Under the pieces are notes generated by a model. That model worked only from the letters and a program-made list of their open reading frames with translations. It searched no databases and was not told the DNA's origin. A DNA stretch of 64,000 nucleotides from assembly GCA_964016885.1 (NCBI GenBank), contig OZ024741.1, forward strand, positions 161,262,001 through 161,326,000, in the 5' to 3' direction. Position numbers and translations under genes: made by a program. The stretch comes from Eledone cirrhosa (Eukaryota). Every line of letters starts with the position of its first letter. Position 1 is the stretch's first letter. Below are positions 11,101 through 14,100 of the stretch, one piece after another.

Positions 11101-14100
11101 ATAATGAAAGTAAAATAACTTACAATGATGTTGCCTATAATTTCCAGTTTGACGATATGTAAAGTGATGTTGCTGGTGGAATTGAGGCAAAGGAGGTGAA
11201 TGTCAACTTTCCCTTGGAATGTGAAGTTTAAAGGGTTACCAGTATAAATATTTGGGTTCATTTCTAAGTTGTATAGTTGAGGGATTATGGATCTGGGTAA
11301 CCTCACATCAACAGACTTCTTTATTTTACTGGAAATAATGAATAATTAGATTAATAAATTAGAAGCTGTTACAAATGTTGGACAAGTTATTTTAGCTATT
11401 CAAAAAATATATACAAAAACTGTTAAATTCTGTTTAGATTCATTAAATATCTTTATCACTGCAACATATACATACATACATATATGTGTGTATATATTTG
11501 TGTGTGTATCATCATCATCATAATTTTACGTTCGCTTTTCCCTGCTCGCAAGGGTGGGACGGGTCCTATTCAGCACAGCATCTCTCCACTTATCACGGTC
11601 CTTCGTCATCTCCACCATGAGCTTCAGCGATCTGAGGTCTGCTCTCACCACCTCTGCCCATGTTTTTCGTGGTCTACCTCTACCAAGTCTTCCTTCAACT
11701 GGCATTTCCTGGCACTTCTTCACCTATCGGTCATCCTCCATGCACATCACATGTCCATACCATCGCAGTCTCCTCTCTCGTACACTACAATCTATCCTTC
11801 TCAGACACAGTTTCTCTCTCAACACATCCATGCTCGGTTGTTCACGCACATTGATATTGCACATCCAACAGAGCATGTTTGCCTCATTTCTCTCCAGCTT
11901 TTGCATATCCTCTGCAGTTGCTGCCCATGTCCCCATGTCTCACTACCATCCAGCATCGCGCTCCTCACACAGGCATCATATATATATATTTTTTTTTTAA
12001 TTTGCATTGTTTTAGGCTTTCACAAAACAATCCTAACTACTGATTACATTTTTTGATGTCAAACTTTTTGTTGCTTGGTTCTCAACCTGGTCATTGATAC
12101 AGTTCTACTGTCCGACTAAAACTTTGACACCAAGGAATAAATCATAAAAGTAAAGTAAATTTATTAGTTTAAATTTTCTTTTTAATGGCTAAAAGGATTT
12201 TTCCATGACATAATTGATTCAGTCTCAACAAACTCTCTCAAATTAAATCACTTACCAGACAAGTACAACTCTGACATAAAAAATCAAAGACAAGTTAAAT
12301 GGACCCATGGTGAGGACAAAACAATGATTAATTCTCTCATAGACATAACTTCAACTAAAATATTTTTGTACTAGTTTCCTGCTGTAGCCAGATCTGAGGC
12401 TTCATCACACACACACATACATATCACCATCATCTTCACTGATTAATGTTTATTTTTCCATGCTTGTATCTTCCATTTAGGATTGGTTTCTATGGTTGGA
12501 TGCCCATTCTAACACCAACCAGTTTACAGTATGTACTGGGAGCATTTTATCACAACCTTGACAGTACCATATTACAGGGTGGAATGGGTGCTTTTCATTG
12601 TGGCACCAGTATTACCACTTTACCGAGTAGAATGGGTGTATTTTATTGTGGTTCTAGCACTACCTCATATATATATATATATATTGTTATACTTTGGGAG
12701 GGTCATGCTGTCAACAAAAACACATGCACCTGTTGGTTTTCACTTCAGTTTATTATAAATTTCCAGTTGGTTGGTTCGATAACCATCCGATTATCCAACC
12801 AGCCTGCCAACTGGAAAAGTTTTAGATGACTCGTTAGTCATGTCACAGACATGATAACCTCTCTAGTGCTAGTGCCATAATATAATGCACTCAGTACACT
12901 ATATAAATTGATTGGCATTAGGAAGGACATCCAGCCATATAAAACATATTAAACAAAAGCTTAAGCAGACGCTTCAGTTGTGCTGGTGCTTTGATAATAT
13001 GCACCCAGTACACCCAGTAGAGTGCATAAACATGCGTAAGCAAGATGCCCTCCATTCCAAACCTGTCTGTGAGGGTAGTAATTCTGATTAAGTACTGATT
13101 TGGTCAGTGCTGATTGCCAGCAGGTAAAATGGATGTTAAATAATAATGGCAATATTGATGGTGATGGTGGTGGTGATGATGATGATGATGATGATGATGG
13201 TCATGATGAGGGTGGTGGTTGTGATGTTGATGATGGTGATGGTGGTGGTGATGACAGTGAGGATGATGTCGATGATGATGGTGGGATAATGGTGACGATG
13301 ATGGTGGTGATGGTTAAGTTGATGATGATGATGACTGGAGCAAGAAATTACCTGTCTGTTGTTTTTGTCAACCATTCTTTTACTGGCTTAAAGTTTTTCT
13401 TCATCCACTTGATGTTGGTCTTAGTTGCTTCTATTGCTTGCTGATATGATCGTTTTGATGATGCCAGGTCCCCTTGTTCGGCCACAAATGCTTCCAGCTG
13501 TTATACAAATGAAACAACTGAATCATTTAACATCCATTGCCATGTTTCTGATGAGATACATTTTCTTTTAATTGTTTCATGCCAAGGCGCCACCTTGATG
13601 GGATTTAGCCTTCTTCATGCCCCTCCTTTGGCTTCTCCTCTTCTCTTGATGGTTAATAACTAAATATGTATATTCTATGTTTCCATTATAAATAGGATGT
13701 CTGACTAGGCTGCCACAGCTATTGCACATGGCAATATTTTGTGTAAGCTAATTAGATACAGCACAGTTATCTAATGTGGAGGCACGTGGCCTAGTGGTAA
13801 GGGTGTTGGACTTACGATCATAATGTTGTGGGTTCGATTCCTGGATTGCGTGTTGTGTTCTTGAGTAAAACACTTCATTTCATGTTGCTCCAGTATACTC
13901 AGCTGAAAATGTGTACCAGCAATAACTGGAGGTTTAACCCTGTGATGGACTGGCGTCCTGTCCAGGGGAAGTCTTATACTCTCAGTCGCTCCACGCCATC
14001 AAACTAGGATAAGCACTGGCCAAATGAGCCTTCTGGCTTAAGACAGACTTTAGACTGTTATCTAGTATCATTATCGTCTTTGGCAGTATCGGTAGAGGGT

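Follow-up and report, generated by a model that had tools for sequence, protein, structure and literature searches.

Two complete M1 aminopeptidase modules in tandem, probably spliced into a single membrane-anchored protein, in the octopod Eledone cirrhosa

Introduction

M1 aminopeptidases are treated as enzymes with one active site per chain. Aminopeptidase N (ANPEP, CD13), whose structures were the best PDB sequence matches of the octopod protein described here (E 7e-225), shares with it an N-terminal anchor, a GXMEN motif and the zinc motif HEXXH-X18-E, as described in PMC10221039. Canonical ANPEP has one module per chain (~967 aa), whereas the octopod model has two modules in 1930 aa. Two-module proteins numbered 0 of 57 among the matched PDB sequences, the longest of which (1184 aa) is an Fc fusion. 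In mammals, ANPEP forms dimers of separate chains through domain IV (PMC10221039).

Two homologous zinc-peptidase domains in a single chain are known from somatic ACE, where they arose by gene duplication and have distinct specificities, as stated in PMC3235092. The likeness to the octopod protein is a functional analogy, that of two tandem zinc-peptidase domains; ACE belongs to family M2 and has a different motif spacing. ACE makes its one-domain isoform, which retains the C-domain, from an alternate promoter, whereas no short isoform was found for the octopod gene. Databases already contain multi-module M1 proteins, without comment, and such chains are easily dismissed as gene-model fusions. 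No description of them was found in a literature search that had most subscription journals outside its scope.

We analyzed a 64,000-nucleotide stretch of the Eledone cirrhosa genome (contig OZ024741.1, positions 161,262,001 to 161,326,000; hereafter the window, numbered from its first letter), in which the end of one M1 module lies next to the start of another.

Results and Discussion

A 42-exon gene with two complete modules

We took 600 kb around the window and built a gene model by tblastn with orthologues and splice-aware exon joining against a 1932-aa Argonauta protein (P0121). The model comprises 42 exons on the minus strand with an open frame of 1930 aa, and all 41 introns are GT-AG. 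It is identical to P0121 at 1442 of 1930 residues (75%) and to the Logan protein P0007 at 1139 (59%); most exons are 64–100% identical to Octopus bimaculoides and Argonauta proteins. Exon 1, with the ATG and the membrane anchor, lies outside the window on C2 (window offset +135445 to +135067, minus strand). The anchor, an N-terminal segment from aa 28, is the only hydrophobic segment of the model.

Module 1 occupies aa 150–1038 of the model and module 2 aa 1046–1929, each spanning positions 1–890 of an 891-column module profile. Exons 3–21 of module 1 (aa 279–1038) were placed at 13352..59730 on the minus strand by tblastn and splice-aware joining. They include exon 6 (55540..55694, minus strand), with the GAMEN exopeptidase motif (aa 421) and the zinc motif HELAH (aa 457; HEXXH-X18-E), and exon 7 (53775..53888, minus strand), with the third zinc ligand E, 18 residues past HEXXH. 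In module 2, exons 22 (described below) and 23 (4998..5197, minus strand) lie within the window; exons 24–42 continue on the same strand beyond it to a stop at offset -45171, with GGMEN (aa 1315) and HEIAH (aa 1351; HEXXH-X18-E) at offsets -14420 to -16277. Each module has the full domain set Peptidase_M1_N, Peptidase_M1 and ERAP1_C, and the orthologues carry PF17900, PF01433 and PF11838; domain I of module 1 relies on a displaced exon 2, discussed below. Judged by these motifs, both modules are M1 aminopeptidases with predicted zinc-dependent N-terminal exopeptidase activity.

The two modules are identical at 399 of 889 residues (45%). Among 19 exon pairs between them, 13 have the same length and 5 differ by whole codons, while the last pair measures 146 versus 150 nt. 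The paired exon lengths, together with the identity between the modules, fit duplication of a whole module. A search for a third module through 400 kb of downstream and 200 kb of upstream sequence found none. The first-pass annotation had proposed, from the window alone, one polypeptide with two or more tandem modules. Extension of the model past both window edges gave exactly two, each with HEXXH-X18-E, and the tandem arrangement was supported by orthologues and by intronless contigs of relatives.

The exon set, the open frame, the motifs and the paired exon lengths are direct observations. We consider it quite likely that the two complete modules of this aminopeptidase N-like gene are joined by default through splicing of 13352 to 11328, so that a single protein of ~1930 aa results, anchored in the membrane and with two predicted zinc sites.

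The junction between the modules

Exon 21, the last exon of module 1, encodes its C-terminal helix (13352..13497, minus strand, 146 nt). Its 3' end reads CAG|gtaattt, a phase-2 donor that gives Arg-stop when unspliced. The junction intron (11329..13351, minus strand, 2023 nt, phase 2, GT-AG, repeat-rich) is followed by exon 22 (11124..11328, minus strand, 205 nt), which encodes the linker and the beginning of domain I in module 2 and is preceded by the phase-2 acceptor ttccag|T. The two exons thus join in frame, both sites being phase 2, as the first-pass annotation had read them. Scored against the Argonauta orthologue, this join came out 41 units ahead of all others. Exon 22 matches Pfam Peptidase_M1_N at 27.5 bits (cut-off 25.8). 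The 48-aa terminal exon 21, searched alone, gave no Pfam match, and it aligns with the module C-terminus in orthologues. Among the matches listed for three runs of one sample, which behave as genomic DNA, none contained the 13352–11328 joint, and this is evidence neither for nor against its use.

No start, signal or anchor exon for module 2 was found in the junction intron. The intron contains high-copy repeats, a (TGA)60 tract at 13156–13334 and 14 ATG-led ORFs of ≥19 aa, of which the sole strongly hydrophobic one is the (TGA)60 microsatellite read as poly-Ile.

The Arg-stop at the donor had also been taken as a possible splice-or-stop switch; on that reading, the donor would be skipped in some tissues and intronic polyadenylation would release a complete one-module enzyme of 1039 aa. 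The position of the stop lends this some appeal: exon 21 plus G-TAA measures 150 nt, equal to the last coding exon of module 2 with its stop, so that the two ends are homologous, and a second tandem gene on C21, described below, likewise reads Arg-stop at its donor. The junction intron has four AATAAA hexamers (12754, 12647, 12454 and 12165), and one gene yields one- and two-domain isoforms in ACE, there through alternate promoters according to PMC3235092. However, any phase-2 donor that starts GTAA, GTAG or GTGA places a stop one codon into the intron, and an immediate stop follows 12 of the 17 phase-2 donors of this gene (11 of 16 excluding the junction donor); the Arg-stop is no more than chance. 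In leave-one-out matrices built on this gene, the junction donor ranked 12th and the acceptor 14th of 41, both better than the gene median. AATAAA occurs at 1.98 per kb in the junction intron versus 1.32 gene-wide (range 0–6.2), and since the hexamer is absent for 3 kb around the true stop, the poly(A) signal scan says little. A junction-region search, covering proteins of 30–1061 aa, found 0 one-module cephalopod forms in 21 matches. Among 225 fetched proteins of >300 aa, a set biased to long proteins, one (from an aphid-wasp gene) ends at an internal module end, and the named isoforms of clams, abalone and bees among the members listed are all longer than one module. With a stop that is usual for phase-2 GTRA donors, splice sites above the median and no one-module isoform found, the proposed switch was not borne out and we regard it as unlikely. 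Splicing into the two-module protein remains our preferred reading, and we take the AG|GTAA at the join to reflect how the fusion arose, through recruitment of a donor across an old stop, and not regulation.

A displaced exon 2 in the assembly

One exon of the model is out of order. No match to exon 2 was found between exon 1 (+135445) and exon 3 (59730); instead it occurs downstream, at offsets -132042 and -212919, in two copies 99.9% alike over 1651 bases. Both copies sit in an ~81-kb tandem duplicate within the same gap-free stretch as exons 3–42. Taken at face value, this would mean a rearranged or broken locus in this animal, with exon 2 truly downstream and module 1 impossible to make in frame. 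Skipping of exon 2 shifts the frame, as the phase is 1 at the end of exon 1 and 2 at the start of exon 3. Against this, a 200-N gap with an AT microsatellite alongside lies between exons 1 and 3 (offset +82983), every one of the 42 exons has an open frame and canonical sites, and exon 2, at 84% identity to Argonauta, is in phase with both neighbours. DNA contigs also carry exon 2 letters that match neither copy and may represent an allele or an unassembled copy. Contig depth was 13.7–16.1 over exon 2 versus 5.2–8.2 at the junction, where depth is not to be equated with copy number, and no unique similarity was found between the displaced exon 2 block and the exon 1–3 interval. A broken locus seems to us distinctly improbable. 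We tentatively read the displacement as assembly disorder or as a copy lost in the gap, and it leaves the exon 21–22 junction of the two-module model untouched. The duplicate lies at about 161.01–161.20 Mb of C2, downstream of the gene end, at 97–99% identity and with partial third copies.

Use of the join in relatives

The gene model of Octopus bimaculoides crosses the same join and also includes repeat-derived pieces. Residues about 33–90 of this model (P0001) match a short repeat present dozens of times around the locus and are likely a false exon. Argonauta has models of 1648 and 1932 aa. Seven Logan proteins of 1826–1932 aa, on 35 contigs of ≤6893 bases, are all two-module and fall into one 90% cluster with a protein of Sepia pharaonis. 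Short members of this cluster end at exon borders, which indicates that the gene has introns; the open frames of 5.5–5.8 kb on the Logan contigs would then be spliced mRNA. RNA-type support for the join thus comes from contigs of a relative that is 59% identical, which we infer to be mRNA.

The distance from the last Trp of module 1 to the RLP motif of module 2 is 16 residues in our model, Argonauta, the sepiid and O. bimaculoides, and likewise in four clams. All four cephalopods have Ser or Arg at the junction, as expected from an AG| phase-2 donor. A second two-module M1 gene lies at C21:7,900,958-8,019,456. Its first module is divergent, with the motifs GGMEN and HEIIH; the join is again a phase-2 AG|GTAA, and the gene has orthologues in O. 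sinensis, O. bimaculoides and Argonauta. Further M1 zinc-site exons were seen in the genome at C4:171,613,638, C2:113,537,868 and C21:17,491,459.

Multi-module M1 proteins in other invertebrates

The search for multi-M1 proteins that the first-pass annotation had suggested for molluscs found them there and in other invertebrates. Its breadth rests on a word-seeded search for long proteins (1237–3530 aa), which gave 109 long matches. At least one join of ≤30 residues was present in 84 of these and no clear join in 10. The remaining 15 have only long joins, which often contain a second membrane segment, and these look like fused annotations. A short join without an internal anchor may serve as a simple rule for separating real chains from fused ones. 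Two modules occur in clams, abalone, snails, an amphipod and an isopod, and three in bees, wasps, ants, Acanthaster and a rotifer, with proteins of about 2700 aa across Hymenoptera (P0027, P0031, P0034). Mytilus and Ostrea have four, in mussel and oyster proteins of about 3700 aa (P0173, P0182, P0186). Joins in these invertebrate proteins are 7–29 residues where measured, and the three-module proteins of bee and ant are also found on Logan contigs of 8–9 kb.

Database fusions of this kind, several with an internal membrane segment, are an argument for regarding the octopod modules as two independent tandem paralogues whose join is a coincidence or an annotation fusion. Module 2, however, lacks any exon with a start, signal or anchor, the length of the linker is conserved and the join is crossed by intronless contigs of a relative, which leaves this reading hardly credible.

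We inferred trees from 100 modules of 51 chosen proteins, with subsets of 33 and 24, without vertebrate ANPEP, ENPEP or TRHDE references. Cephalopod first modules cluster together and second modules likewise (support 99–100), and the two groups are sisters with support of 97 under LG+G4 and 90 under a mixture model, the latter from a quick version of the tree. FastTree did not recover the sister relationship and placed the C21-type second module beside module 2 with weak support. Modules from the same animal are mutual closest rows in Haliotis, Elysia, Acanthaster and Hyalella, and in Hymenoptera the three module positions form one clade. The multi-module proteins of other invertebrates are annotated in databases as 'putative aminopeptidase-2' or 'aminopeptidase N-like', and the trees do not group their modules by position with those of cephalopods.

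Topology tests rejected an octopod-only duplication (p-AU 1.9e-8). Of two groups named after the trees had been inspected, a single clade of 11 mollusc first modules was rejected (p-AU 2.3e-59) and a grouping of cephalopod and clam first modules marginally so (p-AU 0.010). The trees thus favour repeated origins of multi-module M1 chains, and sequence exchange between modules could mimic such separate origins. With a two-site form in octopods and cuttlefish and two- to four-site forms in many invertebrate lineages, chained M1 modules would be a recurrent architecture comparable to two-domain ACE. A bolder version, in which two to four invertebrate M1 modules were chained repeatedly and independently by a donor across the stop, and the stop is still usable, so that one gene could make either a one-module enzyme or a covalent hetero-dimer with two sites, strikes us as unlikely.

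A possible origin and the arrangement of the modules

For the cephalopod gene, we suggest that a single-module gene was duplicated in tandem before the octopod–cuttlefish split. The copies would have been fused by a donor overlapping the stop of the upstream copy (AG|GTAA) together with an acceptor situated a few codons ahead of domain I in the downstream copy, and the second membrane anchor would have been lost. To judge from their motifs, both modules would remove residues from peptide N-termini at the cell surface, and their preferences would probably differ, by analogy with the N and C domains of somatic ACE, while tethered by a short and probably flexible linker.

An AlphaFold2 model of a junction-spanning Mytilus protein (1047 aa, 30-row alignment) reached a pLDDT of 89.2 and a pTM of 0.76. 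Only the linker (817–824) fell below pLDDT 50, as a coil between well-folded parts, and the model matches APN structures (TM 0.85 to target). For the two domain IVs of Argonauta, ESMFold2 gave 0.56 in three runs versus 0.00 for the best of three controls, with contacts agreeing at ≥91% and partner pLDDT of ≥83. Of 78 solved complexes, 51 reached the mark applied, as did 2 of 108 mismatches, and passes at ≤0.60 comprised only 5 of the 78 solved complexes and all 4 mismatches that passed. Because solved APN dimers exist, the domain IV result may reflect likeness to them, and the pair score is blind to whether a contact is made within or between chains. It is possible, on this slight modelling evidence, that the two domain IVs pack as a built-in dimer. 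Tethered modules would allow direct tests of whether they divide substrates or replace dimer formation.

Other features of the window

Several features of the window lie outside the coding exons. At 6130–7315 on the plus strand, a 310-aa open frame and the frame that follows resemble a retroelement reverse transcriptase, with motifs that we take to be Penelope-like. Reverse transcriptase fragments, presumably LINE-like, lie at 39025–39744 on the plus strand in the intron that separates exon 13 from exon 14. A 9.4-kb intron contains, over about 23500–30500, very long microsatellite tracts rich in AT, with GC down to 7%. A tandem array occupies 47198–48773; its repeat unit is about 69 bases long and the copies are ~98% alike.
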